A stretch of 64,000 bases of DNA from Bernardetia sp. ABR2-2B (GTDB taxonomy: Bacteria > Bacteroidota > Bacteroidia > Cytophagales > Bernardetiaceae): assembly GCF_037126435.1 (NCBI RefSeq), contig NZ_CP147020.1, positions 1,715,293-1,779,292 on the forward strand. Direction: 5' to 3'. Shown here one piece after another: positions 17,434 to 63,769 of this stretch (position 1 is the first letter of the stretch; each line of letters starts with the position of its first letter). The notes below the pieces were generated by a model, which was given only the letters and a program-made list of their open reading frames with translations, was not told where the DNA came from and did no database searches. A program made the position numbers and the translations under genes.

Positions 17434-17471
17434 AGTGTGTGTTTATTATTTGATTAATTCTAACTTTCTAC

Positions 17472-18060: not shown

Positions 18061-18096
18061 CTTATTTCAAATTTTGATAAAAAATACTGTATCAAG

Positions 18097-18149
18097 TAAA
18101 GAAACAAAAACCATTTTTGATTTAGAAATTTCACTTTTCTTTCTGTTCC
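18097..18149. repeat. copy 2 of the duplicated 3'-end element
   Basis: Same sequence, overlapping the stop of 18131..19711. Confidence 0.8.
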
Positions 18150-19711: not shown

Positions 19712-19942
19712 TAATTAATTTTAGATGGTGTTTGACAAAGCTATGAGTATTTTAAGATTACTAATAATATTGTTGAATCAAAAAGACTGCTCAACCTGCT
19801 GTTATTTGGTGTTTTAGCAAAGCAACACCAACAACCGAATATCCTAAAAAACCTTTTTTGAGATTTTTTATAAGTCATTTATTGAGTAAGTTGAATAAAG
19901 TTAGCAACTTGTTTGTATTTTTGATAAAACACAAAAAAAATT

Positions 19943-46953: not shown

Positions 46954-47064
46954 GTCAATAATTTGTCAGTAAAGAAACTTATTTACAAGATTATAAATTA
47001 AATAAGTTCTTATTTTTAAATAGGCTAATTTACATTCGTAATTTTTAATCCGTAATTGTCCCTT

Positions 47065-47985
47065 ATGAATTATTCTTCTCTTCGAATACGAATCTATACC
47101 ATCATAGAACGTGGCGAAAAACATGACAAAAAAAGTGTTTATTTTGATTATTTCATAATCGTACTAGTTCTTTTGAGTGTAATTTCTACTATTTGGGAAT
47201 CTTATCCAACAGCACAACAAAAGTATGGCGAATACTTTCACTCTTTTGAACTCTTTTCTATTGCTATTTTTACAGTCGAATACTTGTTACGCCTCTGGAC
47301 TGCTCCTCTAAAATATCCTCATCTTCCAGCTTGGAAAGCCTATCTAAAGTATATCTTTTCTTTTATTGCTTTGGTAGATTTACTTGCCATTCTTCCATTT
47401 TACCTACCATTTTTGGGTGTAGAGGATTTACGTCTTTTGAGAATGATGCGACTTTTGCGTCTGTTGCGTGTTTTTAAACTCAACCGTTATTCTCGTGCCT
47501 TAAATTTGGTATATGATGTCTTAAAAGAAAAGGGAGAAGAGCTTGTTACAACTGTATTTTTTGCCTTGATTTTACTTTTAGTTTCTTCTACCTTGATGTA
47601 TTATGTAGAACATGAAACTAACCCAGAAGGCTTTCCTAATATCATTGCTACGCTTTGGTGGGCTGTTGTTACACTTACTACGGTTGGTTATGGCGACGTT
47701 GTCCCTGTTACGATGCTAGGTAAAATACTAAATGGCGCAACAGCTCTTATCGGAATTGGCGTAGTGGCACTTCCTACCAGTATTTTGAGTGCAGGTTTTT
47801 TAGAGAAAGTAGAGGAACGCAAAAAAGCTGAAAAAGAAGCAAAAGAACAATTAGAAAAACAGCTTTTACAAGATTTGAAGCAACGGAATGGAGAAATAGA
47901 AGAAGAATCAGAAAACTCTACTACTCATTCTACACACCTTTGTTATTGTCCTCATTGTGGAGGGAAATTGCCTGAGATAAGTTAG
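47065..47985 (+). CDS. voltage-gated potassium channel (6TM, S4 sensor, TVGYGD filter)
   Basis: S4 helix RLLRMMRLLRLLRVFKL with Arg every third residue, selectivity filter TTVGYGD, C-terminal CxCxxC zinc-ribbon-like tail. Start moved to the ATG. Confidence 0.8.
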   Translation: MNYSSLRIRIYTIIERGEKHDKKSVYFDYFIIVLVLLSVISTIWESYPTAQQKYGEYFHSFELFSIAIFTVEYLLRLWTAPLKYPHLPAWKAYLKYIFSFIALVDLLAILPFYLPFLGVEDLRLLRMMRLLRLLRVFKLNRYSRALNLVYDVLKEKGEELVTTVFFALILLLVSSTLMYYVEHETNPEGFPNIIATLWWAVVTLTTVGYGDVVPVTMLGKILNGATALIGIGVVALPTSILSAGFLEKVEERKKAEKEAKEQLEKQLLQDLKQRNGEIEEESENSTTHSTHLCYCPHCGGKLPEIS

Positions 47986-48196
47986 AGTGAACAAACTTTT
48001 TCTAATCAAGATACTCACTTATCTACACTAATTCATAGATTATCAATTAATTGCTTATATAATTGATAAAAAATGTTATCTTAGGCTTGTAAAGTTTAAA
48101 AGAAGCATGTACTTTGCCTAATAAACTTATAAACTAAAGATAAAATTAGGACAAACATTAGATTCACAAACAAGAAAACAACTTAAAACTTCCCTT

Positions 48197-49033
48197 ATGT
48201 CTGCAAATATGGGCGAAATAGAAATAGCCGAGCTACGCAAACTGACTACTTTCATTAAAGAAAAGTTTGATTATAACTTTAAGGACTATGCCATGTCGTC
48301 TTTTCGAAGACGAATCAAGCGTATGCTTGATTTATACAAGCTTCAAACTGTCGATGAACTGATTCATATTCTCAATACAAAAGAAGGCTTTTTTGAGGAG
48401 TTTGTTTCTGAACTTACTGTAAATGTTACTGAAATGTTTCGTGACCCTACGTTTTGGCGTGTCTTACGTGAGCATATCATTCCTAACATTATGCTCAATC
48501 ACAACAAAATAAGTATTTGGCACGCAGGCTGTTCTTCTGGTGAAGAGATTGTTTCTATGTCTATTGTTTTAGATGAAATGGGTATTTTGGATAAGGCAAA
48601 AATTGTAGCCACAGATATTGACCGTTCTATTATTGCTAGAGCAAAAGAAGGACGTTACCCTCTCAAGCACATGGAAGTAAATCGTAAGAATTATTTGCGT
48701 TATCAAGGTAAATATTCTTTAGAGAAATATTATACAGAGGTAGGTTCGGAAGCTGTAATAAATAAATCTCTTTTAGAAAATGTATCCTATCGCAAACACG
48801 ATTTGGTACAGGGAAGTGTTTTTTCAAAATTTGATTTAGTTTTGTGTAGAAACGTAATGATTTATTTTAATCAAACACTACAAAATCAAGTTTTACACCG
48901 TTTGCACGAAAGTTTGTTCAAATATGGCTACTTAGTTATCGGTTCGAAAGAATCTTTAATTTGGTGTGATATTGCTCACAAATTTATTGTAGTAAATAAC
49001 GAAGAAAAGATTTATAAAAAAATTAAAGATTAA
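48197..49033 (+). CDS. cheR: protein-glutamate O-methyltransferase CheR
   Basis: CheR N-terminal domain (FKDYAMSSFRRRIKRM) plus a SAM-binding domain (ISIWHAGCSSGEE ... VLCRNVMIYF). Confidence 0.9.
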   Translation: MSANMGEIEIAELRKLTTFIKEKFDYNFKDYAMSSFRRRIKRMLDLYKLQTVDELIHILNTKEGFFEEFVSELTVNVTEMFRDPTFWRVLREHIIPNIMLNHNKISIWHAGCSSGEEIVSMSIVLDEMGILDKAKIVATDIDRSIIARAKEGRYPLKHMEVNRKNYLRYQGKYSLEKYYTEVGSEAVINKSLLENVSYRKHDLVQGSVFSKFDLVLCRNVMIYFNQTLQNQVLHRLHESLFKYGYLVIGSKESLIWCDIAHKFIVVNNEEKIYKKIKD

Positions 49034-49138
49034 TTTAATATTAATAAAAAAATTTTATATATAATCACAATTTTTAATTAGCTATGCTGATTATTTCATA
49101 ATTCGTAATTGTTCCTAAGTCAGCTAACTTTGAGCTAA

Positions 49139-49747
49139 ATGGTAAAAGAAGCACATCTTATAAATAAATACAAGGCAGTCGTAATTGGTGGTTCGGCAGG
49201 AAGTTTTCAACCTATGGTTCAAATTCTTTCTTCTATTCCTCGTGAGTTTCCCTTACCTATATTTCTATGTTTGCATCGGCTCAAACATGTGCGTCATGGT
49301 TTTGTAGAAGCTCTCTCCATAAAAAGCCAAAAAGAAATTATAGAGCCAATGGACAAGGAAAGTATTAAAAAAGGAATTGTATATTTAGCTCCAGCCAACT
49401 ATCACATGGCAGTCGAACTTGGCAACTCTGTTTCACTGAATACCGAAGGTTTATTAAACAATTCTCGTCCAGCAATAGATATAACCTTCGAATCAGCAGC
49501 TTATGTATATCGTGATAAATTAATTGGTATCCTACTTTCAGGTGCAAATAAAGATGGAGCTGTAGGAATGCAGAAAATAAAACACCGTAAAGGACTTACA
49601 ATTATTCAAGATATTGAAGAAAGTATGATTAATGCAATGCCATTAGCTGCAAAAAACATTGTAGATATTGATTACGAGTTGAAGGTAGATGAAATTATAG
49701 GTTTTTTATTAAAATTAAATAAAATCTATCAACAAGAAAAGATATAG
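49139..49747 (+). CDS. cheB: protein-glutamate methylesterase CheB catalytic domain only (no receiver domain)
   Basis: VIGGSAGS active-site Ser context and the His/Asp motifs of the CheB methylesterase fold; 202 aa, no REC domain. Confidence 0.8.
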   Translation: MVKEAHLINKYKAVVIGGSAGSFQPMVQILSSIPREFPLPIFLCLHRLKHVRHGFVEALSIKSQKEIIEPMDKESIKKGIVYLAPANYHMAVELGNSVSLNTEGLLNNSRPAIDITFESAAYVYRDKLIGILLSGANKDGAVGMQKIKHRKGLTIIQDIEESMINAMPLAAKNIVDIDYELKVDEIIGFLLKLNKIYQQEKI

Positions 49748-49793
49748 TTTAAAGTTTTTAGAGCATCAAAAGAGACAAAAAAATTGAGAATAA

Positions 49794-50579
49794 ATGAAAA
49801 AATTCTTTCAAAATAGTATCTGGTTTGGTTTGGCAGTAATATATGCCATAGGTATTCTTGTGTCTGGTCTATTATTGCTTTATTTATACGAAAAACTTTC
49901 AGATGCAGGAATTTTGACTGAAAATGATCATCTTTTAATGGGTTTTATAATCTTTGAATTATTATTAGGACTTGTTTTAATGTTTGGTTTCTATGTTAAG
50001 TGGCAACGCAAACAAGCGCAAGGAGATATTATTTATGTAGATAGATATGTGAATGAAAATACACAGGAATCAGAAATTAAAACAAAAGTTTTAGATTGGA
50101 ATAATCAAAGAGCTATTTTATCCGAAATAATCAAAAACCCTAATAAATCACAGTCTTCAAACGAGATTCTCAAACATATTTGTAATGAGTTAGAAGCTGT
50201 TTCTGGGGCGTTTTATGTCTCTCATATAGATACAGATGTAAGAAGAATAGAACTTATTGCTACCTATGCTTTTGCTCTGCCTGATAGTCAATCTCTATTT
50301 TACGAATTTGGAGAAGGGATTGCAGGGCAAGTAGCCAAAGTAGGTCAAAAAACATATCTTAGAGACATTCCAGAAGGATACCTGAATATTCTTTCAGGCT
50401 TAGGAGAAAGTCAGCCTTCTGTTCTTTTGGCTGTTCCGATACAACAAGATAATACTCAAAAAGATATAGAAGAAAACCCAGTAAAAGGAGTTATTGAATT
50501 AGCTTCCTTTAAAGAATTTACTGATTCAGAGAAAGAATATATAGATAAAGTAGCTGATTTAGTAGCCAAACATCTATAA
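49794..50579 (+). CDS. membrane-anchored GAF domain protein
   Basis: Two N-terminal TM helices, then a GAF domain clearly homologous to the GAF of the downstream sensor (ATYAFALPDS..FGEGIAGQVA vs ATYAYHKRKY..FAEGLVGQAA). Confidence 0.7.
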   Translation: MKKFFQNSIWFGLAVIYAIGILVSGLLLLYLYEKLSDAGILTENDHLLMGFIIFELLLGLVLMFGFYVKWQRKQAQGDIIYVDRYVNENTQESEIKTKVLDWNNQRAILSEIIKNPNKSQSSNEILKHICNELEAVSGAFYVSHIDTDVRRIELIATYAFALPDSQSLFYEFGEGIAGQVAKVGQKTYLRDIPEGYLNILSGLGESQPSVLLAVPIQQDNTQKDIEENPVKGVIELASFKEFTDSEKEYIDKVADLVAKHL

Positions 50580-50647
50580 AATTTAAAATTATTAGTTAAT
50601 TTTAAAAATAAATCTAACTATTTAATTAATCACTTTAATTAATCTCT

Positions 50648-53600
50648 ATGCTCAATCGATTCAGCATTCGTACCAAAATCACAATACGACTTATAGTGGT
50701 AGTGCTTATGGCTGCATTTGTGCTAAGTTGGGTTTCTTACGATCGTGGAAAAGAAGCCGTCGAACAGCGTTATTGGCAAAACCTTAAAGTAATTAATAAA
50801 CTTAAAAGTAAAGAAATTCAAGGAGTATTTTCTCAGATTAGTTCGCATGTTAAATTACTTCAAGAATATTCTTCTGTACTTCAATCCCTTCGCAGTGTAA
50901 GTACAATTAGTGAGAGTAAATATACAGATACATTACAAAATCAGCTTCGCAATAAATTAAATGAATCATTACTTCCCTTTAAAGAAACCTATGACTATCC
51001 AAATCTAGTGCTTGTCAATAAAGACGGAAGGATAATTTATAAAACTAATTCAACAGCTGATTATCTTATTTTTGGTAGAATACACGACCGTTATCAAGAG
51101 CTTCTGACACACGCTAATGATGGAATTTATTTTAATGAACCAAGAATAGCAAAAGAGCTTTCAGGAAACCCTAGCCGTATGGAAGCGATTGCTCCTATCT
51201 ACGACCCACAACAAAATTACTTAAAGATAGGCTATATCATTGTCGAACTAGATATGGAAGTTATCTATAATGTTGTTGAAGATAAAACAGGACTAGGAGA
51301 AACAGGTGAGATTGTTTTGGGAAGACAAAAAAGTGCTACTACCATTACTATTTTAAATGAATTAAAAACTCAAGGTCCAAATACTCCTAAAATAATGGGA
51401 GATGGAAAAGCAGAAGCATTGGAAAAAGCATTAAAAGAAAAAACAGAAGGCTATGAGTTTTCAATAGACTATAAAGGCGACGAAACACTTGCTACTTGGA
51501 ATTATATTGAACCTGTCGGTTGGGGAATGGTTACACAAGTAAACAAAAGTGCCGTAGAAAGTGATTTGAATGGGCTTGTCATTGCATTTATCCTAACAGG
51601 TGTAGTGATTATCGTTGTTGCTGGTGGACTTTCTTTTATATTCTCTACTCTTCTTACTCGTCCTATCGAACGCCTACAAGTTGTTTTAGGAATTGTAGCA
51701 AAAGGAGAACTACCAAAAGAAATAAAAAAAGAAACCAATGATGAAATTGGACAAATGACAGAGGCTGTCAATAATTTAGTACAAGCTCTCAAACGAACAG
51801 CTGACTTTGCCTATCAGATTGGAAAGGGAAATTATAAAGCCTCTTTCAAACCTATGGGCAATAATGACACCTTGGGTAATGCTTTGATTACGATGCGAGA
51901 TAGTATTCAAGATGCAGATAGTAAAGACAAACAAAGAAACTGGATTGTATCAGGTGTAGCAGAAGTAGGACAGATTTTACGTGAATATCAAACTATAGAG
52001 CTTCTTTCAGAAAAAATCATTGCTTTTATCACAGAAAAAATAAACGCTGTTCAAGGCAGTTTTTATATTGTAGAAGAAGATGAAATTACACAAGAAAGCA
52101 CCATTGAAATAAGTGCAACCTATGCTTATCATAAAAGAAAATATCTCAAAAAATCATTTCGTTTTGCAGAGGGATTAGTAGGACAAGCAGCTATTGAGCA
52201 AGATATTATTCTTCGCACCGAAATTCCTGATAATTATATGACCATTAGTTCAGGACTTTTAGGAGAACAGAAGCCAAAAGCTTTACTTATCGTACCTCTT
52301 ATTACAGATGAAAAAGTATTTGGAGTAATGGAATTTGCAGGGTTTTCAAGATTTACTGATACAGAGGTAAATTTTGTTCGTGAAATTAGTATTATTATTG
52401 CCCGAACTATCTTCAATATAAAGGTAAATGACCGTACTGTTTCTCTTCTTCAAGAATCACAGCAAATGAGTGAAGAGCTTCAATTACAACAAGAAGTCTT
52501 GCGCCAAAATGCAGAAGAAATGGAATCTACACAAGAGGAACTCCGTAAATCTAATGCACGACTAGAAGAGCAAGTCTTGGAAGTAAATCGTACTCAAAAA
52601 CGTATGCAAGTCCTGCTAGAAAATGCCTCAGAAGTAATTACTATTTATGAGAAGAATGGAAAAGTTCGCTACATAAGTCCATCTATTGAATCTATTTTGG
52701 GCTACGAACAATCTGAACTCATCGGAACAAATGATGTAGATAATGTTCAACAAGCAAGTAAAGAAGCCTTTAGGCAACTTTTTGAAAACCTTTTAGAACA
52801 TCCAGACGAAAATATTACTATTCAATATGAATACCGTAAAAAAAATGGAGATGCTGTTTGGTTAGAAGCTACAGGAACAAATCGTTTGAGCGACCCTGCT
52901 ATTAGAGGTATTGTTATTAACTCTAGAGATATTACAGAGCGAAGACGTGCCGAACAAGAATCTCGTATGCGTGGACAAATGCAAGCACTTTCGGAAAACT
53001 CACCTGACCTTATTATGCGTCTGAACCCAGACGGAAAGATTTTTTATGTCAATCCAACCATCAAAAATTTAACTGGTTTAGAGCCTTCAACACTGACAAA
53101 CAAGATGATGAAAGGTTCAGAATTGCCTACTGCTATTGTCAAACGTATTGAAGAAATTACAGAAAAAGTAAATAGAACAGGAAATAAAGTGCTAAGGGAA
53201 CTAGAAATTGATTCGGTTGCAGGTCAGCGTGTCATGCAAACAACAGCGATTCCTGAGTACAACGACCAAGCTTATTTAGAATCAATACTGGTAGTTTCTC
53301 ACGATATAACAGAGAGAAAAAGAACTGAATTTGAGGTTAGAGAAACAAACCGTAAAATTTCAGAAAGTATTAACTATGCAAGACGTATTCAAGGTGCAAT
53401 TTTACCAGAAAGTCGTCATTTACAAAGCATTTTTCCAGATTCCTTTATTTTTTATAAACCTAGAGATATTGTTAGTGGAGATTTTCCTTGGTATGTACAA
53501 AAGGGCGATGATGTTTATATTGCAGCCGTTGATTGTACAGGACATGGAGTACCTGGGGCTTTGATTTCTCTTATTGGATACTTTATTTTAAATGAAATTT

Positions 53601-54115
53601 TAAGTTCTAGTCAGACTATTCTTTCTCCTGCCCAAATACTAGATAGACTAAATAAAGGAGTTGCACAAACACTAAGACAGGATACAGAAGGAAATACCAA
53701 AGACGGTATGGACATTGCACTTTGTCGTATTAATAGAAAACAAAATAAGGTAGAATTTGCTGGAGCACATCGTCCTTTATATGTCTTACCAAAAGAAGGT
53801 AACTTAATACAAATAAAAGGAGACCGAAAACCAATTGGTGGTGGAGCTATTTACAGTAAATCTGATGACTTTAGTAATCATAATTATAAAATTTCTAAAG
53901 GAGATTCACTTTATATTTTCTCTGATGGTTTGCCTGACCAGTTTGGAGGAGAAGAGGATAAAAAATTCTCTGCTAAACAGATACGTGAAATTTTAGTAGA
54001 AAATAGAAATCAAAACATGGAAGAAATGCATATTACTTTCGAAAATCGTTTTGAGCAATGGATGGGAAATAGTAAACAAATTGATGATATTTTGATGATT
54101 GGCATTAAGTTTTGA
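50648..54115 (+). CDS. multidomain sensor PP2C phosphatase (Cache-like periplasmic domain, TM, HAMP, GAF, coiled coil, 2 PAS, PP2C/SpoIIE; SiaA-like)
   Basis: TM helices flank a roughly 270-aa periplasmic region; HAMP (LTRPIERLQVVLG ... DEIGQMTEAVNNLV); GAF; PAS motifs; C-terminal PP2C motifs SGDFPWY, DCTGHGVPGALIS, FSDGLPDQFGG. Confidence 0.85.
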   Translation: MLNRFSIRTKITIRLIVVVLMAAFVLSWVSYDRGKEAVEQRYWQNLKVINKLKSKEIQGVFSQISSHVKLLQEYSSVLQSLRSVSTISESKYTDTLQNQLRNKLNESLLPFKETYDYPNLVLVNKDGRIIYKTNSTADYLIFGRIHDRYQELLTHANDGIYFNEPRIAKELSGNPSRMEAIAPIYDPQQNYLKIGYIIVELDMEVIYNVVEDKTGLGETGEIVLGRQKSATTITILNELKTQGPNTPKIMGDGKAEALEKALKEKTEGYEFSIDYKGDETLATWNYIEPVGWGMVTQVNKSAVESDLNGLVIAFILTGVVIIVVAGGLSFIFSTLLTRPIERLQVVLGIVAKGELPKEIKKETNDEIGQMTEAVNNLVQALKRTADFAYQIGKGNYKASFKPMGNNDTLGNALITMRDSIQDADSKDKQRNWIVSGVAEVGQILREYQTIELLSEKIIAFITEKINAVQGSFYIVEEDEITQESTIEISATYAYHKRKYLKKSFRFAEGLVGQAAIEQDIILRTEIPDNYMTISSGLLGEQKPKALLIVPLITDEKVFGVMEFAGFSRFTDTEVNFVREISIIIARTIFNIKVNDRTVSLLQESQQMSEELQLQQEVLRQNAEEMESTQEELRKSNARLEEQVLEVNRTQKRMQVLLENASEVITIYEKNGKVRYISPSIESILGYEQSELIGTNDVDNVQQASKEAFRQLFENLLEHPDENITIQYEYRKKNGDAVWLEATGTNRLSDPAIRGIVINSRDITERRRAEQESRMRGQMQALSENSPDLIMRLNPDGKIFYVNPTIKNLTGLEPSTLTNKMMKGSELPTAIVKRIEEITEKVNRTGNKVLRELEIDSVAGQRVMQTTAIPEYNDQAYLESILVVSHDITERKRTEFEVRETNRKISESINYARRIQGAILPESRHLQSIFPDSFIFYKPRDIVSGDFPWYVQKGDDVYIAAVDCTGHGVPGALISLIGYFILNEILSSSQTILSPAQILDRLNKGVAQTLRQDTEGNTKDGMDIALCRINRKQNKVEFAGAHRPLYVLPKEGNLIQIKGDRKPIGGGAIYSKSDDFSNHNYKISKGDSLYIFSDGLPDQFGGEEDKKFSAKQIREILVENRNQNMEEMHITFENRFEQWMGNSKQIDDILMIGIKF

Positions 54116-54496
54116 TAAACTTCTTTTCGACTTTATTGAAGGTTCATTTAAGTTTTCAAGAAAATCAACTTTTTTTTAATTTATTTTAATTCTTACTTTG
54201 TTCTTCTAATAATTTATCCTAACTTAAAGGCATGTTTAAAGATAAAGGTTTAGATAAAAACCAAACAGTAGGTAAAAATCTTATACAAATGCTCTTTATT
54301 TTCGCTAAAAAGCCTTTTTATTTGGACAAAACCTTTGCTTAGAACATCATTTTCTATGTACTTTTGTTAAACTAGCTTGTAGCAGGTTTATCATACAGAT
54401 ATTTTGATTCAACTATTTTACTTAATTGTTTTAATATAGACTCTAATTTTTTTAAAGATACTCTCAAGACATTTTCAAGATATTAAGCCACTAATT

Positions 54497-55078
54497 ATGA
54501 AATATATTTATGACTTACACAAGGTTATGCTCAAACAAAGCTTGCTTTTAGTATATGAAGGCGAGTTTAGTCAAGAAATAACTAAGGCTGTTTTGGCAAT
54601 GGCAGAACGTAATATGGATTCCTTTGGTGAGCAACGCAAAGTCAAGACAAAGGTCTTTAATGTCATGGTAGAAGATTTACAAAACATCTTTAAACACTCT
54701 CAAAGCTATCAAGAAGAGATTTATGGAAAGAATAATGCTATTTTTTCTTTAGCCAAAACTGACGACCATTATTTCGTTCTTTCTGGGAATCCACTTTTTA
54801 CAAATGAAGTAGAAGCTTTAAAGAATCGTCTTGAAGAAATTAATTTGTTAGATGCTGCTGGTCTAAAAGAAGAATACAAACGCATTATCAAAAGTAAGAA
54901 AGGCGTTGGAAAAGATGGATTATCTGATAAAGGAGGCGCAGGTCTTGGGTTCATTGATATGGCTCGTAAATCAGGTAATAAAATTCGTTTTGACTTTGAG
55001 AAGATCAATGATGAACTTTCATTTTTCTCACTTCGCATGACAATCAATCGTAATCCTGATGCAGAAAAAAAAGGTTAA
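54497..55078 (+). CDS. SiaB-like GHKL-fold Ser/Thr protein kinase (anti-sigma-factor-like)
   Basis: About 190 aa with the G2-box-like GGAGLGFIDMARKSG of HATPase_c/RsbW-type kinases, directly upstream of a DUF1987 gene. Confidence 0.55.
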   Translation: MKYIYDLHKVMLKQSLLLVYEGEFSQEITKAVLAMAERNMDSFGEQRKVKTKVFNVMVEDLQNIFKHSQSYQEEIYGKNNAIFSLAKTDDHYFVLSGNPLFTNEVEALKNRLEEINLLDAAGLKEEYKRIIKSKKGVGKDGLSDKGGAGLGFIDMARKSGNKIRFDFEKINDELSFFSLRMTINRNPDAEKKG

Positions 55079-55185
55079 AATAACAGATAAAATATTCAAA
55101 ATACAGTCAATTTAATTTGACACTATATTAATTCAAACTTACAACTCATTTTAGAATTTTATACTAAAAATACTCTATAAAGAAT

Positions 55186-55548
55186 ATGGACGTAATCAAC
55201 TTAGAACCAACAGAAGACACACCAAAAGTAATCTTAGACAAAGATCGTCAGGCATTCGAAATATCTGGTCGTTCTCTTCCTGAAGATGCAGCCGAATTTT
55301 ATCAACCTATCTTAGATTGGTTAGACGAATACGAAAACCAAGTAAATCCAGACACGAAATTTATGTTTAAGTTGGAGTATTTCAATACTGCATCATCAAA
55401 ACTTATCTTGGATATTCTTTCTAAATTAGAAGAAATTGAAGGTGCATCTGTAATTTGGTATTTTCATGAAGATGATGAAGATATGGAGGAAGCAGGAGAA
55501 GAATTTTCTGACCTTGTAGATATTCCTTTTGACTTCAAAACCTATTAA
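55186..55548 (+). CDS. DUF1987 (SiaC-like) phospho-switch protein
   Basis: 120 aa, EYFNTASSK motif with Thr at position 68, acidic C-terminus. Confidence 0.65.
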   Translation: MDVINLEPTEDTPKVILDKDRQAFEISGRSLPEDAAEFYQPILDWLDEYENQVNPDTKFMFKLEYFNTASSKLILDILSKLEEIEGASVIWYFHEDDEDMEEAGEEFSDLVDIPFDFKTY

Positions 55549-55897
55549 TAAAAATAGTTTTTTTATAAGAATAACAGCTCATTTGAATTGATTATTTTTA
55601 TGTGAAGTTAATTTATACAGCTTGTGTAATTAAGGAGTTGATTATCAAATACTTAATTATTCATTGTCAATTAATTTTTATAGGGTAATTTCGCTTAGTC
55701 TTCTCTATTCGAAGTTTGCCCTTTTATGCCTTTTAAATAAAAATACTCTTGATTTACAAAACTGTATAGTTTAAAAGAGATAAGAAAGAAGATATTATAT
55801 AAATAGAAACTTGACTTTCAAGTGGCGAATCAGAAGTAATACTTAATAATGAATTTCGTAATTTTTAATGCGTAATTCGTAATCGACATTAAAGAAT

Positions 55898-58800
55898 ATG
55901 AGTGAAGAAATACTAAAAGCCCTAACCCAATTATTTGCAGTTGTTTCTAAACAAGACGGTGGCGTATCTGAAGCCGAGCGTAATTTTGTTATTCGATTCT
56001 TCGAACAAGAGTTGGATAGAAAAAGACTTGCTGAATATGTTGCACTCTATGACCAATATGCAGAATCAGGAGTAGAAGGAGAAGATAAAAAAGGAGCTGA
56101 AGCAACAGCAGAAAATCCAGAAGATATAGTTATAATAACAGAAGGCAAAACACCTGAAGAAATAGAACAGCAAGAAAAAGATAAAGCTAGAGCCATACGA
56201 AGAGCTAAACGAAAAGCAAAAAAAGCAGCAGAAGGAGGAGATAGTGGAAACATTAAGTTAAAAGATAGTATGCGTACGCTTAAAGTATGTAGAAATATCA
56301 ATAAAACACTTGCTCAAAAGCAAAAAGTTATTGTTACATTTAAGATTTTAGAGATGCTTGCCGTTGATAGAAACTTTAGTAGCCATAGATTAGAAATTAT
56401 ACAAACAGCTTCTGAAATCTTTAGAATTCCAAAAGAAGAATATGAATTGATGGAAAACTTTGTTATCTCAACAGATTCTCCTCAAATGTTCGATTCCCCA
56501 GACCTTTTAGTATTTGATGAAGAAGCTCCTCCAGTAGAGAGCAGAAAAAAATTCATTGATTCAGGACTTTTAGATGGCGAAATTGTTTTTATTCGTCTGA
56601 AAAGTGTTGAATTATATTTTACAAAATATAATGGTAATGATGAGATTTTCCTAAATGGTCAGCTTGTCAAAAAGGGAACAATCGTTCTTTTCTCAAATGG
56701 TAGTGTTTTCAAAACACCGAAAGGTGCGCCTCTTTATTATAGTGATTTAGTTACTCGTTATAATGATACAGCTCAACAAAATCCTATCTCATTTAATGTC
56801 ATTAATTTAGATTTCCGTTTTCCAGACGGAACTATCGGACTTCGCAACGTAAATATTGCAGAAGGACCAGGAAAACTGCTCAGTATAATGGGAGCAAGTG
56901 GAGCAGGAAAAACTACGCTTCTCAATGTTTTGGCTGGTTTGGAAAATCCTTATAAGGGCGAAGTACGTATAAACGGTTTCAATCTTCATACAGAATCAGA
57001 TATGGTAGAGGGCGTAATTGGTTACGTTTCTCAAGATGATTTACTAATAGAAGAACTCAGTGTTTATCAAAACTTGTATTATAACGCTAAGCTTTGCTTT
57101 AAAAATCTTAGTGAAGAAGAGCTTGATGCTCGTGTGATGGAGGTTTTGGCAAGTTTAGGATTAGATAGAATAAAAGACATTACAGTGGGTAGTGTATTGA
57201 ATAAAATGATAAGTGGAGGGCAACGTAAGCGTCTCAATATTGCTTTGGAGCTTATTCGTGAACCTGCCGTTATGTTCGTAGATGAGCCTACATCAGGTCT
57301 TTCTTCAAGAGATTCAGAAAATGTAATTGACCTTCTAAAAGAACTTTCACTCAAAGGAAAACTTATTTTCGTAGTAATTCACCAGCCTTCTTCAGACATT
57401 TATAAGATGTTTGATAAAATGATTTTGTTAGATACAGGAGGCTATCCAATTTATTATGGAAATCCTGTTGAAGCGATTGCTTATTTCAAACGTGCTACAA
57501 ATCAAGTAGGAAGTGATAACGGACAATGTCAAACATGTGGAACAGTTACACCAGAACTTCTCTTTAATATAATTGAAGCAAGAGTAGTAAATGAATATGG
57601 AGAATATACAGGTGTAAGAAAAATAGCTCCACCAGAATGGAACGATTTGTACAAACAAACACATTCTATTTCACCAGTAGAAACTGTAAACGAGCCACCA
57701 CCAAACTCACTCAGTATTCCTTCAAAGATAAAACAGGCTGCTATTTTTATGACTAGAGATTTTCTCTCTAAGATTAGTAATACGCAGTATATGATGATAA
57801 ATCTTTTAGAAGCTCCTTTACTTGCACTTTTACTCTCTGTAATCGTCCGATTCAAAAATGCAAAAGATGCAGAAGAATATATATTCCGATATAATGATAA
57901 TGTACCTGCTTATATGCTGATTGCTATTATTGTTGCTCTTTTTATGGGATTAACAGTAAGTGCTGAGGAAATCATTCGGGATAGAAAAATTCAGAGGAGA
58001 GAATCGTTCTTAAATCTAAGTAGGATAAGTTATCTGACTTCGAAGGTAGGTATTTTGTTTACTCTTTCAGCTATTCAAACGCTCACTTTTGCGCTCATTG
58101 GTAATACTATTTTAGAGATTCAAGGGATGTATTGGCAATATTGGCTTGTTTTATTTAGTATTTCTTGTTTTGCCAATGCCTTAGGACTAAATATTTCAGC
58201 TTCCTTCAATTCGGCTGTAACTGTTTATATTCTTATTCCATTATTACTTATTCCTCAAATGATTTTGAGTGGTGCAATTTTTAGATTTGACCAACTTAAT
58301 AATTCAATTGTAGAAAAGGGACGTATTCCACTTGTTGCTGACTTGATGGCTTCTCGTTGGGCGTATGAAGCGTTGGCTGTTGAGCAGTTTAAGGATAATC
58401 CTTTTGAAAGGCAGATTTTTGATGTAGAATTTGAGATTAGTCAGTATCAACATAAAGCCAATTTCTGGATTCCAAAGATGCAAGAAATTTTAGACCGTTC
58501 AGCAAATTATGCAGAGAGCGCACAAAATGAGAATGCTGATTCTGTTATGGTATTGCTTCAAGATGATATTGCATTGCTTAAACACGAATGGGAAAGTGAA
58601 AAAGTAAACGAAATACTTGATCGTTTGAAGATTCAGGCAGAAGACTTAGAACTTTCTTCAGAAGAGCAAAAACTATTAAATATAGATTTGGAAAAGACAC
58701 TTCAAATTATAGAGTTTGATAGAGAAATGGCTGACAAACTGAAAGCTGTCTTGGAAATGATACGCTCAAAGGTATTGACTCCCAAGTTTGTGATGGCTGG

Positions 58801-59203
58801 TGAAAGAAAAGATAGCATCATAAATGCAATGGAACAAAACCCTGCAAACAAACTTTCAGTAGTTGAACGAAAAAATAAATACACCAATGAGTATTTAGAA
58901 TCACAGGTGAAAAATGAAATGATAAAAGATAAATATGTAGAAGGAAATGGATTTTTGGTACAACAAACAGACCCTATTTTTGCTGTTCGTAATCCAAATA
59001 ACCTTTCTAGCCCATTAGACTATCGTACTCACTTCTTTGCTCCTGAAAAGCAATTTTTAGGTAATTATTTTGATACAATGTGGTTTAATGTATGTGTAAT
59101 GTGGGTAATGACAATTTTACTACTTATTACTCTTTATTTTGAATTACTCAAAAGATTAATTGATGTACTTGGAGGTATTAACTTTAGGAAAAAGAAAAAA
59201 TAA
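55898..59203 (+). CDS. ABCG-type half transporter (ATPase then ABC-2 permease) with N-terminal TerB-like domains and a possible FHA-like beta-sandwich
   Basis: N-terminal TerB-like DGGVSEAERNFVIRFF; Walker A GASGAGKTT, signature ISGGQRKRLNIALEL, Walker B MFVDEPTSGLSS; six C-terminal TM helices. Segment IFLNGQLVKKGTIVLFSNGSVF is FHA-like (uncertain). Confidence 0.8.
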   Translation: MSEEILKALTQLFAVVSKQDGGVSEAERNFVIRFFEQELDRKRLAEYVALYDQYAESGVEGEDKKGAEATAENPEDIVIITEGKTPEEIEQQEKDKARAIRRAKRKAKKAAEGGDSGNIKLKDSMRTLKVCRNINKTLAQKQKVIVTFKILEMLAVDRNFSSHRLEIIQTASEIFRIPKEEYELMENFVISTDSPQMFDSPDLLVFDEEAPPVESRKKFIDSGLLDGEIVFIRLKSVELYFTKYNGNDEIFLNGQLVKKGTIVLFSNGSVFKTPKGAPLYYSDLVTRYNDTAQQNPISFNVINLDFRFPDGTIGLRNVNIAEGPGKLLSIMGASGAGKTTLLNVLAGLENPYKGEVRINGFNLHTESDMVEGVIGYVSQDDLLIEELSVYQNLYYNAKLCFKNLSEEELDARVMEVLASLGLDRIKDITVGSVLNKMISGGQRKRLNIALELIREPAVMFVDEPTSGLSSRDSENVIDLLKELSLKGKLIFVVIHQPSSDIYKMFDKMILLDTGGYPIYYGNPVEAIAYFKRATNQVGSDNGQCQTCGTVTPELLFNIIEARVVNEYGEYTGVRKIAPPEWNDLYKQTHSISPVETVNEPPPNSLSIPSKIKQAAIFMTRDFLSKISNTQYMMINLLEAPLLALLLSVIVRFKNAKDAEEYIFRYNDNVPAYMLIAIIVALFMGLTVSAEEIIRDRKIQRRESFLNLSRISYLTSKVGILFTLSAIQTLTFALIGNTILEIQGMYWQYWLVLFSISCFANALGLNISASFNSAVTVYILIPLLLIPQMILSGAIFRFDQLNNSIVEKGRIPLVADLMASRWAYEALAVEQFKDNPFERQIFDVEFEISQYQHKANFWIPKMQEILDRSANYAESAQNENADSVMVLLQDDIALLKHEWESEKVNEILDRLKIQAEDLELSSEEQKLLNIDLEKTLQIIEFDREMADKLKAVLEMIRSKVLTPKFVMAGERKDSIINAMEQNPANKLSVVERKNKYTNEYLESQVKNEMIKDKYVEGNGFLVQQTDPIFAVRNPNNLSSPLDYRTHFFAPEKQFLGNYFDTMWFNVCVMWVMTILLLITLYFELLKRLIDVLGGINFRKKKK

Positions 59204-59428
59204 CTCAATACAAGTTTAAAACAATTTTGGGTTATTACTTGATTTTTCTAATAGATTTACTAATTTAGTTTATTATTTAATTACTCATTTTAGTTTTAGA
59301 GTTAAACCTATTTAGTTTATCAAACTCATATCATTAAAATTATCTCAATTACGACAATATTCTCTTATATGAAACATCTAGTTTATTCTATTCATACCAG
59401 TTCTATAATTAAGAAAAAAATGCTTTCT

Positions 59429-60352
59429 ATGAAAAAACTACAACTCATCGCTTTTCTACTCACTTTTGGTCTTTTTACACTTACTTCTTGTGGAGGAGAT
59501 AAGCCAACAGAAGAAACAACAGGAACAACAGAAGCAAATGCAGGAACTGCTGATACAGGAGCTGACGAAGATATCTTAGCCCCAGGGGTTATGAACGATA
59601 TTATTCAGTCTATCCCTTCACCTTTAGAGGTTTCTATTTTAATAAAAGATTTGGGAACAGATTATCACAAAGATAATTTGAGTAATCCTGATTTAGTAGA
59701 TAATTATACTAATAATTACAAAAAGGCTCTGAACTTGGGTGTGTATAGTACGGATTTAGGTTATGCTAATATTTATGAAAAAAATCAAGATGCACTAAAC
59801 TATCTCAACTCTGTCAAAAAATTAGCTGATGGACTAAATATTGGTCAGTTCTTCGATTATACAACCATCAAAAAACTAACTCAATCTAACAAAGATTTAG
59901 ATTCTCTCTTACAACTTACTACTCAGAATTTTGAGAAAATCAATACAGAACTTCGTAAGCAGAAACGTGAGTATTTAAGTATTCTTATTCTTACAGGTGG
60001 TTGGTTAGAGGCTAACTATATTACTTCTTTAGTTTTCAAAGAAAGTGGTAATGAAGACCTTAGAGAAAAAATAGGAGAACAAAAACTTGTTCTGAACCGT
60101 ATTCTTTTAGTTTTGAATGTTTATAAAAACAAACCTAACTTTAGTGGTTTCATAGCTGATTTGGAAGAACTCAAAAAAGTATATGAAAATGTAGAAATTG
60201 TAGAAAAAGACGGGCAGCCAAAAATGGAAGTCGTAAATGGTGAAATTGTAATCACAGATACAAAAGAAACTGTTGTCAATATATCCGAGTCTGATGTACA
60301 GTCTATCAATAGTTTGGTAGCTTCTATCCGTAATAAAATTATCAGTAATTAA
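59429..60352 (+). CDS. hypothetical lipoprotein
   Basis: The internal ATG gives MKKLQLIAFLLTFGLFTLTSCGG; the upstream extension to 59369 is possible. Confidence 0.45.
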   Translation: MKKLQLIAFLLTFGLFTLTSCGGDKPTEETTGTTEANAGTADTGADEDILAPGVMNDIIQSIPSPLEVSILIKDLGTDYHKDNLSNPDLVDNYTNNYKKALNLGVYSTDLGYANIYEKNQDALNYLNSVKKLADGLNIGQFFDYTTIKKLTQSNKDLDSLLQLTTQNFEKINTELRKQKREYLSILILTGGWLEANYITSLVFKESGNEDLREKIGEQKLVLNRILLVLNVYKNKPNFSGFIADLEELKKVYENVEIVEKDGQPKMEVVNGEIVITDTKETVVNISESDVQSINSLVASIRNKIISN

Positions 60353-60502
60353 TTTTATTCTAAATTTTTGACACAAAAATATAATCAAAAAACCCCTTTA
60401 GCTCCTCAAATAGACCGATTTTAATAAGAATTCAATATAAAATTTAAGATTGGACGGTTTTTTGATTATATCACAATAAAGAAGCGTATCAACAATAAAA
60501 TA

Positions 60503-60528
60503 ATAATCAATAACTAGTTATTGATTAT
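60503..60528. promoter_or_regulatory. perfect 26-bp palindrome ATAATCAATAACTAGTTATTGATTAT (candidate operator)
   Basis: Exact dyad symmetry in an intergenic region about 240 bp upstream of the 60767 gene. Confidence 0.35.
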
Positions 60529-60766
60529 TTGGAGATAAATTAAAACTTATCTTTACTTTTAGAAGTCTTCTAAAATAGAATAAAACCTTTAGTATAATTT
60601 GAGTACAATTTATTAGGTTGAGAGAAACGTTTCTTTATTTTTATCTATCTTTTTTACTTTTGGAAAAGTATTTGCAACATCACTCATTATTAACCTAATT
60701 GTTACATTAATTATACTATTTCCTAATTCCTAATTGAACAAGTTTTTGTCCAAATAAGCAAAACGT

Positions 60767-61198
60767 ATGAAACATTTATTAATTCTTTTCTGTGCTTTTT
60801 TCTTTGTCGCATTTGCAGCTACTGACGCTCAAGCACAATGTAATACTGACCTTTATAACAACCTTGCGCTCAAAAAACTCGCTCCAGGTTACACTTTCGT
60901 AAAAAGTTACCGTATTGACGGTAAAGGAGGAAGTCGTAAAAAAATTGAATACACGTGTGTATTCAGTAAAGGTACTGATTATATGATTCGTATGGCTGGT
61001 AAAGATGGAGGACCAAATGGTCTTATTGCTACTCTTTATGACTCTCGTCGTTCGCAGTTAGCAACTAGCTACTTGAATAACAAGTATTATGATGGTCTCG
61101 TTTTCAAATGTGCATCAACAGGTATCTATTATTTGAGTTTTACTTTTAAAGACTCAAATAGTTATTGTGGAGCTGCCGTTTTAGGTTTCCGTCGCTAA
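60767..61198 (+). CDS. hypothetical secreted protein
   Basis: Signal peptide ending AQAQ, 143 aa. Confidence 0.5.
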   Translation: MKHLLILFCAFFFVAFAATDAQAQCNTDLYNNLALKKLAPGYTFVKSYRIDGKGGSRKKIEYTCVFSKGTDYMIRMAGKDGGPNGLIATLYDSRRSQLATSYLNNKYYDGLVFKCASTGIYYLSFTFKDSNSYCGAAVLGFRR

Positions 61199-61313
61199 AA
61201 CCTCGCTATTTATAGAAAAAGTTTACTAATTATATTAATTAGCTAAAGCATTACAGAGCAAAAGAACATATCTTTTGCTCTTTTTTCATGTTTAATTTAA
61301 AGAAAGGTAAATA

Positions 61314-61979
61314 ATGACAAAAAAAACAATCTCCTTTTCGCATCAAGCTAGATATTTCACTTTTGGAAATTTATCCAATGAGACAGAATATATATGGATA
61401 GTATTTCACGGATATGGACAGTTAGCTGAATATTTTATAAAAAAATTTGAAGGGCTAAATTCTCAATCTAATACTGAAAGACATTACGTAATTGCACCTC
61501 AAGGACTTTCAACAGCTTATTTGAAGAGCTTTACAGGAAGAGTGGGAGCAAACTGGATGACCAAATATGATAGAGAATTAGATATAGAAAATAACTTAAA
61601 TTACTTAGAAACTTTAATAAGCAATGAATTAAAAGATATTTCTAGCAGTAAAAACAAAAAAATAATTGTTTTAGGGTTTTCACAGGGAGCTGCTACGGCA
61701 AGTCGTTGGATTGCTCATACAAATTTTGAAATTTCTGAGTTTCTAGTATGGGGAGGAATGATAGCTCACGATATTGATAGTATTTTCTATAAAAAAATGA
61801 AAGATAAAATAACACTTTTTTACGGCGACCAAGATGAATTTATAAGTGAAGAAGGACTAAAAACAAATCTTATAAAATTAGAAAAACTAGATATTACTCC
61901 AAGTTTAATTCCCTACAAAGGTACTCATAGAATATATACAGATGTTTTAAATGAATTTATTGAAAACTCTTTAAGGTAG
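61314..61979 (+). CDS. alpha/beta hydrolase (phospholipase/carboxylesterase family)
   Basis: Nucleophile elbow GFSQGA, 221 aa. Confidence 0.65.
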   Translation: MTKKTISFSHQARYFTFGNLSNETEYIWIVFHGYGQLAEYFIKKFEGLNSQSNTERHYVIAPQGLSTAYLKSFTGRVGANWMTKYDRELDIENNLNYLETLISNELKDISSSKNKKIIVLGFSQGAATASRWIAHTNFEISEFLVWGGMIAHDIDSIFYKKMKDKITLFYGDQDEFISEEGLKTNLIKLEKLDITPSLIPYKGTHRIYTDVLNEFIENSLR

Positions 61980-62058
61980 TTTTGAGTTATTTAGACAAGA
62001 CACAACACTACTTATACATTTTTTTAACTTGATTTTTAAATTATAACTCATAATAAAT

Positions 62059-62577
62059 ATGTCGAATACACCCAAAGCAAGTCCTACTAATTTTACAGAA
62101 GAAGATTTTGTGCAACAAAAAAATCCAATAGTTACTCCTAACTCTCAAATTGATACAGAAGAACAAGTCGAAAAATCTAAATTTTATAAAGTAGCAACTA
62201 AAAAAGCAGTTAAGGTAATTGCAAGTAGAAATAAAATGTTTGCTTTACTAAATAAAGCATATAATCATTTCAATAATAAAGAAAATGACCGACCAATGAG
62301 TCAAGAGGTAAAAGAAAAATTCAAAACTCTTTTGCGTTTGATTCGTGCGCTTTACAAAAAAGAATACAAAGATTTTCCTTGGGGTTCTTTAGTAAAAGCA
62401 ACAGCAACTATTATCTATTTGGTTTCTCCATTGGACTTAGTTCCTGATTTCATTCCTTTTATTGGAATGATGGACGATTTTGCTCTTATCTCTTGGACAA
62501 TTGGCTCTCTGAGTGATGATATTAAAGACTTTGAAGATTGGGAAGAAGCTCAACAAATTGCTCGTCTGACAACATAG
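62059..62577 (+). CDS. DUF1232 (YkvA-like) domain protein
   Basis: PLDLVPDFIPFIGMMDDFALI motif. Confidence 0.65.
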   Translation: MSNTPKASPTNFTEEDFVQQKNPIVTPNSQIDTEEQVEKSKFYKVATKKAVKVIASRNKMFALLNKAYNHFNNKENDRPMSQEVKEKFKTLLRLIRALYKKEYKDFPWGSLVKATATIIYLVSPLDLVPDFIPFIGMMDDFALISWTIGSLSDDIKDFEDWEEAQQIARLTT

Positions 62578-62941
62578 AATAATAGAAAACAAAGATATTT
62601 TTATATAAAAAACTCATATCAACTTTGTCAAACTCTACTCTTGTTTTGGCAAAGTTTTTTTGTTGTCTATGCTAAATCTAAGAATTTACTTCGTTTAATC
62701 TGATAAACTCTTGACTAGATTTCTCTACAAAAAATCTTTTTGCATAATAATTGCAGACTAAGAATATAGTTGATAGGTAACATTTCACTTACTCATCATC
62801 TATTTTTAAATATATGAACTTTAGCATTGTCTTTGATTTAGATTAAAGAAAACTAATCAATATTTCAATCATACTATTTATATCCAAACTTATTTCGGTT
62901 GTATGTAACAACTTTATTCACTCTTTTTTAAGAATCTCAAA

Positions 62942-63769
62942 ATGAAATTATTTATGAAAAAATTGCTTTATTTATTCCGTATAAGCATTTTTTGTAGTGT
63001 ATGCTTTCTTATAACTACACAGGCTAATGCACAACTCTCAACAAGTTGGTGGAACTCTTTAGATAAAAACTGGAAAAAAGTTTTTATGACCAAATTTGGT
63101 GTTGGTGCTTCTCCTTCAGCTGCAGAACTAAGTAAGATTTATGCTGCCGAAAAACTTGATTGTAAAGATAGTGGACTAAGCACATTAGAACCTTTAGCAG
63201 AACTCAAAAATTTAAAAATTCTTTGGTGTGATGGTAATTCAGGAATTTCTTCTTTAGACCCATTAAGAAATATTGTAGGACTTAAAGAATTAGATTGCTC
63301 AGGAACTGGAATAAGTGATTTAGAGCCATTACGTTCAATGACAGGACTTAGTCGCTTAGATTGTTATGAAACTCGTATTTCTAACCTTGCTCCTCTTAGT
63401 GGAATGCGTAAGCTTAGAGTATTAGATTTTTCAAATACGCCTGTCAGTAATATTTTTCCGTTAAAATATATAAAGTCTTTAGAAGTGCTTTATATGGCTC
63501 GTACGAAAGTGGCTAGTCTTGCTCCTCTAAAAGACCTTACCAATCTAGGAGAACTTACTTTTTCAGAGACAAAGGTGTCAAGTCTTGCTCCTCTTTCTAA
63601 TCTTTTGAAACTTAGAGAAATCGTATTTGCAAAAACAGAAGTTTCAGACCTTTCACCTCTTAGTAGAGCAAGTACACTTTCAATTGTTTATTGTGAAAAC
63701 ACAAGAGTAACTGAAGCTACTGCAAACGCTTTACAGAAGAAACAGCCTGATTGTACAGTATTTTTCTAA
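62942..63769 (+). CDS. leucine-rich repeat (LRR) protein, secreted
   Basis: Signal peptide, then about 9 tandem 22-residue LxxLxxLxxLxxLdcsxTxisdLxPL repeats. Confidence 0.75.
   Translation: MKLFMKKLLYLFRISIFCSVCFLITTQANAQLSTSWWNSLDKNWKKVFMTKFGVGASPSAAELSKIYAAEKLDCKDSGLSTLEPLAELKNLKILWCDGNSGISSLDPLRNIVGLKELDCSGTGISDLEPLRSMTGLSRLDCYETRISNLAPLSGMRKLRVLDFSNTPVSNIFPLKYIKSLEVLYMARTKVASLAPLKDLTNLGELTFSETKVSSLAPLSNLLKLREIVFAKTEVSDLSPLSRASTLSIVYCENTRVTEATANALQKKQPDCTVFF

Follow-up and report, generated by a model that had tools for sequence, protein, structure and literature searches.

A predicted SiaABC-type threonine phospho-switch encoded beside an ABCG-type exporter in a conserved gene cluster of Cytophagales

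Analysis of a 64,000-nt stretch of the Bernardetia sp. ABR2-2B genome (NZ_CP147020.1, positions 1,715,293–1,779,292 of the forward strand; hereafter, the window) reveals that the genes for a SiaB-like kinase (54497–55078) and a SiaC-like phosphoprotein (55186–55548) are part of a ten-gene, same-strand cluster that is conserved in Cytophagales and that also encodes a SiaA-like sensor phosphatase and an ATP-binding cassette (ABC) exporter. The comparative evidence leans towards a SiaABC-type threonine phospho-switch having an output different from that in Pseudomonas, with SiaC regulating the adjacent ABC exporter. To our knowledge, a single DUF1987/SiaC protein has been characterised, that of Pseudomonas, which activates a diguanylate cyclase; the cluster offers a concrete second output candidate for the family, namely an ABC exporter.

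The cluster comprises, in order, genes for CheR, CheB, a transmembrane GAF protein, a sensor with a PP2C phosphatase domain, SiaB, SiaC, the ABC exporter, a lipoprotein, a small secreted protein and, often, an alpha/beta hydrolase, all on the same strand and separated by median intergenic gaps of 8–115 bp. Synteny was assessed by tblastn of the window proteins against genome loci, with the loci assessable for each gene as denominators. Among the input genes, CheR is present in 61/67 loci, CheB in 62/68, the GAF protein in 63/68, the sensor in 65/70 and SiaB, directly upstream of SiaC, in 78/78; downstream of SiaC, the exporter is present in 72/74 loci, the lipoprotein in 63/66, the secreted protein in 59/63 and the hydrolase in 34/60. 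A species-level pattern scan (one genome per species) yielded at least 563 genomes with a SiaC of the window type, and the best 80 of these are all Cytophagales, except for a few apparently mis-binned labels of metagenome-assembled genomes (MAGs). The nearest relatives are Bernardetia/Flexibacter-type Cytophagales.

The initial annotation of the window had described a complete triad of kinase, phosphatase and substrate. The SiaABC identity of that triad holds, and the triad is complete as a switch, each of its members being Sia-like; the canonical output is absent, and the larger conserved cluster, with CheR/CheB and the ABC exporter, had been missed. In particular, to judge from the sequence, the cluster lacks the diguanylate cyclase SiaD, by which the output of the Pseudomonas system is defined. 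A scan for the motif G[GAS][DE]EF, which covered the window and 83 neighbourhoods rather than whole genomes, found no match in window open reading frames (ORFs) of at least 150 amino acids (aa) and a match within 10 kb in 1/83 related loci.

Kinase, phosphoprotein and sensor phosphatase

The SiaC-like protein is encoded by an intact ORF of 120 aa (55186–55548, + strand). The protein matches PF09345, "SiaC family regulatory phosphoprotein" (DUF1987), with 134 bits against a gathering threshold of 24.5, over aa 7–119 of 120, and aligns with the Pseudomonas aeruginosa SiaC chains 6kko_C and 6k4f_U (E 2.5e-11) without a gap before residue 83. In the alignment, window "kleyfNTassk" lies on SiaC "rllylNTssik", with N67-T68 superposing on the N-T of LLYLNTSSIK. 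In P. aeruginosa, the SiaC peptide LLYLNTSSIK carries pT68 by mass spectrometry, and this phosphorylation is SiaB-dependent and SiaA-reversible (PMC7647112). Thr68 of the window protein (codon ACT, 55387–55389, + strand), the predicted phospho-acceptor, sits within EYFNTASSK, and the corresponding position in P. aeruginosa is helix alpha-2's N-terminal end. The ungapped alignment thus bears out the placement of Thr68 in the initial annotation: the residue falls exactly on the phospho-acceptor, and not outside the conserved loop. The segment FKLEYFNTASSKLILD is invariant across 74 distinct orthologues. Among non-Bernardetia-like Cytophagales, SiaC identity is 71–81% across families, a remarkable level for a 120-aa regulator, which, on these alignments, indicates strong purifying selection.

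The SiaB-like kinase is likewise encoded by an intact ORF (54497–55078, + strand, 193 aa). It matches the NCBIfam model NF038262, "SiaB family protein kinase", with 172.1 bits against a cutoff of 85, and PF19788 (DUF6272) with 132.6 bits against a cutoff of 26.6, and it aligns with P. aeruginosa SiaB (6kko_A, E 4.4e-13). These matches corroborate the assignment of the 193-aa protein as a SiaB-type kinase, which had been made from its GGAGLGF ATP-lid. Specifically, the GGAGLGF lid, or G2-like motif (aa 146–152; 54932–54952, + strand), aligns with SGAGLGL of P. aeruginosa SiaB, the N-box VMVEDLQNI aligns with SiaB YIEMTQNI, and KGGAGLGFIDMARKSG aligns with SGAGLGLLDIARKS. Residue E59 aligns with SiaB chain residue E62, taken, under an assumed +1 chain numbering, as E61, the predicted catalytic residue of P. 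aeruginosa SiaB (PMC7647112). N-box residues E59 and N63 and the lid KGGAGLGF-DMARKSG (aa 145–160) are kept in 80 orthologues, and conservation is high over the first 40 residues of the kinase. Residues 3–69 of the protein (window 54497–54703) also give a sub-threshold match to a sigma-70 model (NF009196), which, at 21.9 bits against a cutoff of 287, was treated as noise.

By sequence, the resemblance of the two small proteins to SiaC and SiaB is far beyond chance. Their scores do not reach the cutoffs of the equivalog models for SiaB (NF038264, biofilm regulation kinase SiaB; 85.1 bits versus 225) and SiaC (NF038265; 73.6 bits versus 150). The two proteins need not share the Pseudomonas function; as judged from these models, they are family members and not orthologues in function. 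Standard annotation models already supply their family identity, which is not new, and we rate the finding of the initial annotation as correct and largely ordinary, being obtainable with existing models. What we rate as new in the present comparison is the putative ABCG-type exporter output, the apparent input from a GAF/PAS sensor and CheR/CheB, the wide conservation and the informative natural variants.

The third member of the triad is a transmembrane sensor phosphatase of 1155 aa (50648–54115, + strand). The protein contains, in order, a transmembrane segment, a periplasmic domain, a second transmembrane segment, a HAMP domain, a GAF domain, a coiled coil, two PAS domains and a PP2C/SpoIIE catalytic domain (aa 953–1154; 53504–54109, + strand; PF07228, 73 bits). 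The initial annotation had looked to this PP2C domain for the phosphatase, and the domain proves to be specifically SiaA-like: its best solved relative is the PP2C domain of SiaA (6k4e, E 1.6e-35; next match, E 4e-6). The best NCBIfam model for the sensor is also SiaA (NF038263), with 207.8 bits against a cutoff of 700, and matches aa 891–1155 alone; the full SiaA architecture (transmembrane-HAMP-PP2C) is interrupted by the inserted GAF and two PAS domains, and the score is below that of an equivalog. The phosphatase motifs read VSGDFPW, VDCTGHGVPGA, DGMD, SDGLPDQ and DD(I); for the metal motifs GDF, DCTGHG, DGMD and SDG-PDQ, conservation across 64 orthologues is at least 90%, and these motifs and DD align with SiaA, three of them in the form GDF, DCxGHG and SDGxxDQ. 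In the same 64 orthologues, the cytoplasmic part of the sensor is well conserved and the periplasmic part (aa 30–310) is poorly conserved. Together, the alignments support the reading that the three proteins are specifically SiaA-, SiaB- and SiaC-like, beyond a generic likeness to PP2C, GHKL and STAS-like proteins.

The exporter and its linkage to SiaC

The gene that follows SiaC encodes an ABCG/PDR-type half-transporter of 1101 aa (55898–59203, + strand; ABC_tran and ABC2_membrane) with an N-terminal cytoplasmic regulatory region. Its nucleotide-binding domain precedes its transmembrane domain, and its closest solved structures are Cdr1, Pdr5, ABCG2, ABCG1 and ABCG5/8. The N-terminal extension comprises 310 aa, the first 30 of which are nearly invariant. 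An AlphaFold2 (AF2) model of aa 1–311 (41-sequence alignment; mean predicted local distance difference test score, 82.9) has two domains: a TerB-like helical domain (aa 1–190; 55898–56467, + strand) with a disordered insert at ~aa 59–118, and a non-canonical FHA-like beta domain (~aa 200–290; 56495–56767, + strand) with the beta-sandwich fold of FHA domains. These folds became visible only after structure prediction; when PDB sequences were searched with a profile of the N-terminal region, nothing was returned at E ≤ 10. The exporter gives no Pfam FHA signal at E ≤ 1, and in alignments of 25 and 41 homologues neither Arg nor His is invariant anywhere within aa 200–295.

SiaC and the exporter are linked from both directions. 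A reciprocal search of metagenome contigs with the exporter N-terminal region yielded 80 loci, 69 of which have at least 700 nt of upstream sequence, and SiaC is directly upstream of the exporter in 68 of these 69. The sole exporter locus without a clear upstream SiaC (L159) has, at 571–882, no more than a 19-bit match to the SiaC profile, a remnant that may represent a decayed SiaC copy.

The linkage persists in a sublineage that has no detectable kinase (L098, L112, L132/L135, L144, L148, L151, L154, L158 and L160), consisting of Cytophagales MAGs assigned, where named, to Cyclobacteriaceae or Flammeovirgaceae. In this sublineage, SiaC, the exporter, the lipoprotein, the secreted protein and the hydrolase are kept, with SiaC 24–46 nt upstream of the exporter, and the kinase, the sensor, the GAF protein, CheR and CheB are not detectable, including by hidden Markov model. 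The left flank consists of a saccharopine dehydrogenase gene (− strand) and a cytidine deaminase gene (+ strand), and the same genes flank CheR of the full cluster in Cesiribacter sp. SM1 (L003), so it is exactly the five-gene input block that is missing. We read this pattern of gene retention as suggesting that, in function, SiaC belongs to the exporter module as a component or regulator.

The sublineage also differs at the predicted phospho-acceptor. Residue 68 is Thr in 143/143 SiaC copies with SiaB upstream; among the eight assessable copies without SiaB, it is Thr in four and Val or Ile in four. Loci with Val or Ile are L132/L135, L148, L151, L158 and L160, of which L132 and L151 (Val, Ile) are outside the eight, being not assessable for SiaB but clearly in kinase-less clades. 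The change occurs in two sequence types, FKFEYLN[IV]ESSK and IKFEYFNIATSR. We read the distribution as pointing to an absolute constraint on Thr68 only where the residue is phosphorylatable. Val and Ile resemble Thr in shape and cannot be phosphorylated, while Asp and Glu are phosphomimics; because the replacements are Val or Ile, and not Asp or Glu, the unphosphorylated protein would be the form that works with the exporter. The kinase- and sensor-less lineages with Val or Ile for the acceptor Thr provide natural controls.

The polarity, read in this way, would be the same as that of SiaC and SiaD in Pseudomonas, where the unphosphorylated state is the working one. In P. aeruginosa, unphosphorylated SiaC binds SiaD via N67, T68 and S69, with the T68 side chain inserted between the SiaD stalk helices, where phosphorylation clashes, and the authors of the SiaC–SiaD structure suggested that proteins with DUF1987 act as regulators of adjacent proteins (PMC8457831). 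In the literature searched, no second DUF1987/SiaC output is described, and, for Bacteroidota, there is nothing relevant on a link between SiaC and an ABC transporter or between CheR/CheB and PP2C. The unusually conserved SiaC and the near-invariant N-terminal 30 residues of the exporter hint at an interface.

A proposed CheR/CheB-adapted switch and its alternatives

The cluster begins with two genes of chemotaxis type: one for a CheR-type protein-glutamate methyltransferase (48197–49033, + strand, 278 aa; PF01739, 150 bits, and PF03705; best NCBIfam model, CheR), and one for a CheB methylesterase/deamidase domain without a receiver (49139–49747, + strand, 202 aa; PF01339, 150 bits, aa 14–188), which NCBIfam CheB models match by their C-terminal halves only. 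Across non-Bernardetia-like Cytophagales, identity is 61–71% for CheR and 61–74% for CheR and CheB together, and the two genes almost always accompany the sensor. No cluster protein matches a CheA, CheW, CheY or MCPsignal family. The coiled coil between the GAF and PAS domains is the most conserved stretch of the sensor, and, in an alignment of 64 sequences (the window and 63 orthologues), contains an invariant or nearly invariant motif, RQNAEEM[E/Q][A/S]TQEEL (aa 619–632; 52502–52543, + strand), a candidate methyl-accepting site. Specifically, E623-E624-x-x-A/S-T fits EExxA(S/T), the consensus for methylation of classical chemoreceptors, and at position 626 the 64 sequences divide almost evenly between E (32) and Q (31). 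Alternation of Glu and Gln at an otherwise frozen site is seen at chemoreceptor sites that are deamidated by CheB. From this resemblance we propose, with modest confidence, that CheR and CheB adapt the sensor phosphatase.

In the mechanism that we envisage, the sensor would read an extracytoplasmic cue via its variable periplasmic domain, and the signal would pass through the HAMP domain, GAF domain, coiled coil and both PAS domains and so determine the activity of the PP2C phosphatase, while the SiaB-like kinase would re-phosphorylate T68 of the SiaC-like protein. The unphosphorylated SiaC-like protein would bind its target by the T68 face, and phosphorylation would block binding, as in P. 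aeruginosa; the target would most likely be the cytoplasmic TerB-like/FHA-like N-terminal region of the exporter, and not a diguanylate cyclase. The exporter would work with the conserved lipoprotein and the small secreted protein, and the cluster would divide into an input block (CheR, CheB, the GAF protein, the sensor phosphatase and SiaB) and an output block (SiaC, the exporter, the lipoprotein and the secreted protein). CheR and the receiver-less CheB would probably tune the sensor by reversible Glu methylation, or by deamidation, at NAEEM[E/Q]ATQEEL, which is the weakest step. That the whole is a CheA-less device, in which a CheR/CheB-adapted PP2C sensor sets the phosphorylation of SiaC and SiaC directly gates an ABCG-type envelope exporter, is a tentative proposal, possible rather than probable. 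If it is true, the combination is a new one, conserved across Cytophagales: a chemotaxis-style adaptation module has been grafted onto a partner switch controlling transport, and not transcription, c-di-GMP (cyclic di-GMP) or motility.

Several observations weigh against this picture. Everything beyond family membership comes from comparison, and the link between SiaC and the exporter is one of gene neighbourhood alone. Loci L010 and L054 have a SiaB–SiaC pair among unrelated genes without an exporter, so the exporter link is not obligatory. Thr68 persists in the four kinase-less copies counted above; the association of Thr68 with the kinase has a naive Fisher p = 3e-6, calculated over loci that are not phylogenetically independent, and the two changed sequence types probably correspond to two or three independent substitution events. 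Of the extended consensus for chemoreceptor methylation, the coiled-coil motif fits no more than half; a related motif is present in another sensor (L021), and one locus (L048) retains the motif without CheR or CheB nearby. As for the ATP-binding boxes named in the initial annotation, the N-box and the GxGLG (G2-like) lid are present in the kinase, and the canonical GHKL G1 box (DxGxG) was not found, the aligned position being S96-G97-N98. This does not refute the assignment as a kinase, because P. aeruginosa SiaB, which is active in experiments, has SAGN at that position; to judge from these aligned sequences, a DxGxG box is not a feature of the SiaB family.

The alternatives differ in what SiaC, or its kinase, would act on. 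In a classical partner switch, of the kind formed by RsbW or SpoIIAB, the SiaB-like kinase would sequester the target (the exporter N-terminus or a transcription factor), and binding of unphosphorylated SiaC to the kinase would release that target. In P. aeruginosa, the tight 2:2 complex of SiaB and SiaC comes apart on phosphorylation, and the system has been described as a partner switch (PMC7647112), and the conservation of the first 40 kinase residues is in keeping with such a role; yet P. aeruginosa SiaB shows no binding to the output protein (PMC7278518), the cluster encodes neither a sigma factor nor any other evident target for SiaB, and the kinase-less sublineage retains SiaC by the exporter, so SiaC would have a kinase-independent role there. 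We regard this arrangement as rather unlikely. Retention of canonical SiaABCD logic with a remote output, in which a cyclase or other enzyme would be encoded elsewhere and the exporter would be merely a conserved neighbour, is unlikely. It would agree with the specifically Sia-like character of all three proteins and with the exporter-free pairs in L010 and L054, and the GGDEF scan was confined to the window and related neighbourhoods; against it stand the absence of GGDEF-like motifs from the window and their presence in only one of the 83 neighbourhoods, the position of SiaC beside the exporter even without kinase and sensor (68/69), and the scores of both small proteins, which fall far short of the equivalog cutoffs for SiaB and SiaC.

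The FHA-like domain of the exporter raises the alternative that this domain binds phospho-T68, in which case phosphorylated SiaC would engage the exporter. A phosphothreonine read-out of this kind is very unlikely: the Pfam FHA signal is missing, the domain has no invariant Arg or His, so the canonical phosphothreonine-binding residues are not kept, the domain is retained in kinase-less lineages with V or I at SiaC residue 68, and the replacements at that residue are never D or E. Finally, the triad could be a decayed, catalytically dead remnant with no signalling function, as the kinase without a canonical G1 box and the scores below equivalog cutoffs might suggest. This we consider extremely improbable, since the ORFs are intact, the catalytic motifs of both enzymes, like T68 itself, are invariant across 60–80 orthologues from many families, and the 71–81% identity of SiaC across the order reflects strong purifying selection. 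Regulation of the adjacent exporter by unphosphorylated SiaC remains the reading that we favour.

Comparison with known systems and other features of the locus

The closest known system is SiaABCD of P. aeruginosa (PA0172–PA0169), in which genes for a HAMP-PP2C sensor, a GHKL-like kinase and a DUF1987 protein lie side by side in the same order as in the window, and from which the acceptor Thr, its neighbour N67, the N-box and lid of the kinase and the metal motifs of the PP2C domain are conserved here. Unlike that system, the window cluster has no SiaD cyclase; its sensor is ~500 aa longer than SiaA, with added GAF and two PAS domains; it has additional genes for CheR, CheB and the transmembrane GAF protein upstream; the gene after SiaC encodes an ABCG-type exporter; its proteins score below the SiaA, SiaB and SiaC equivalog cutoffs; and S69 of P. 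aeruginosa SiaC is Ala in the window protein. The RsbU/RsbV/RsbW and SpoIIE/SpoIIAA/SpoIIAB systems likewise pair a PP2C phosphatase with a Ser/Thr kinase of GHKL type and include a small antagonist. In structure, SiaC resembles STAS proteins (PMC7647112, PMC8457831); the antagonist in the window, unlike those of the Rsb and SpoII systems, is by sequence a DUF1987 and not a STAS protein, the cluster has no sigma factor, and the output would most likely be the antagonist's own binding partner, and not release of a sigma factor.

Chemotaxis (Che) pathways share with the window cluster a CheR and a CheB encoded beside a HAMP-containing transmembrane sensor that has an invariant Glu/Gln-rich coiled coil with EExxA[ST]. 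They differ in that the window cluster lacks CheA, CheW, CheY and an MCP signalling domain, its CheB has no receiver, and its output domain is a PP2C phosphatase; the cluster suggests that, in gliding bacteria without CheA, CheR/CheB may serve a purpose other than chemotaxis. Mycobacterium tuberculosis Rv1747 is an FHA-domain ABCG-like exporter with an N-terminal cytoplasmic FHA fold and is linked to Ser/Thr phosphorylation signalling. In contrast to Rv1747, the FHA-like domain in the window lacks the conserved Arg, Ser, His signature and the Pfam FHA signal, a TerB-like domain precedes it, and the comparative evidence favours an unphosphorylated partner.

Through the cluster, four Cytophagales proteins that are widespread but functionally unassigned gain a regulatory context. 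Upstream of the sensor is a small GAF protein of 261 aa (49794–50579, + strand; GAF_2/GAF, aa 120–260), which is fast-evolving (~30–40% identity) and, as read from the sequence, has a hydrophobic N-terminus and looks membrane-anchored. Downstream of the exporter is a conserved lipoprotein of 327 aa (59369–60352, + strand), with an LTSC lipobox read from the sequence, 90% identity to Bernardetia litoralis, and no Pfam or NCBIfam family; its informatively named homologues are all "hypothetical", and its AF2 model, a helical bundle with a small sheet, gives generic helical matches only. The next gene encodes a small secreted protein of 143 aa (60767–61198, + strand) that has a signal peptide and four Cys, looks beta-rich, and matches no Pfam or NCBIfam family. 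The last gene encodes an alpha/beta hydrolase of 221 aa (Abhydrolase_2/FSH1-like; 61314–61979, + strand), which is loosely associated with the cluster and follows the exporter also in the kinase-less sublineage.

Within the exporter, window positions 56072–56251 (aa 59–118) correspond to a lineage-specific, charged, low-confidence insert of ~40–60 aa that is absent in most orthologues, and positions 58400–59203 (~aa 835–1101) correspond to a C-terminal extension of ~270 aa after the ABC-2 membrane domain, which has no family match and, by eye, is partly coiled-coil and ends in a hydrophobic helix. Assignment of the locus as a defence system was ruled out, PADLOC having given only generic ABC-ATPase similarity.

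The intergenic gap before siaB (54116–54496) is 381 bp, against an orthologue median of 96 bp, and contains no ORF of note and one TAnnTTTG element (54359–54366), which may be an internal promoter. An Rfam scan of positions 47000–63000 at E ≤ 0.1 gave no match, scans for sigma-70 promoters and terminators gave counts equal to the shuffled expectation in this AT-rich window (G+C ~31%), and the Bacteroidota −33/−7 pattern gave 3 matches versus 2.7 expected, none of them in the cluster.

An exact-sequence look-up of the window SiaC returned no record, and copies 99% identical to it are present in three MAGs (L004, L005 and L008). Four contigs that carry the Cytophagales cluster (L014, L030, P0123 and P0298) have public MAG labels of Roseobacteraceae, Thalassobius or Thalassovita, for which a binning or taxonomy error is the most likely explanation. 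On a metagenome contig from a close relative (L001, ERZ928254), positions 18951–20363, downstream of the cluster, encode a 1371-aa Reg_prop/Y_Y_Y-GAF-SpoIIE sensor phosphatase, in the place of which the window has a leucine-rich repeat protein (62942–63769). In Cesiribacter sp. SM1 (L003), a second, divergent Sia-like module, comprising a 615-aa SpoIIE phosphatase, a 128-aa SiaC-family protein and a 367-aa DUF6272 protein, lies at 15876–19255, ~6 kb downstream of the first, and these genomes therefore appear to carry several such switches.

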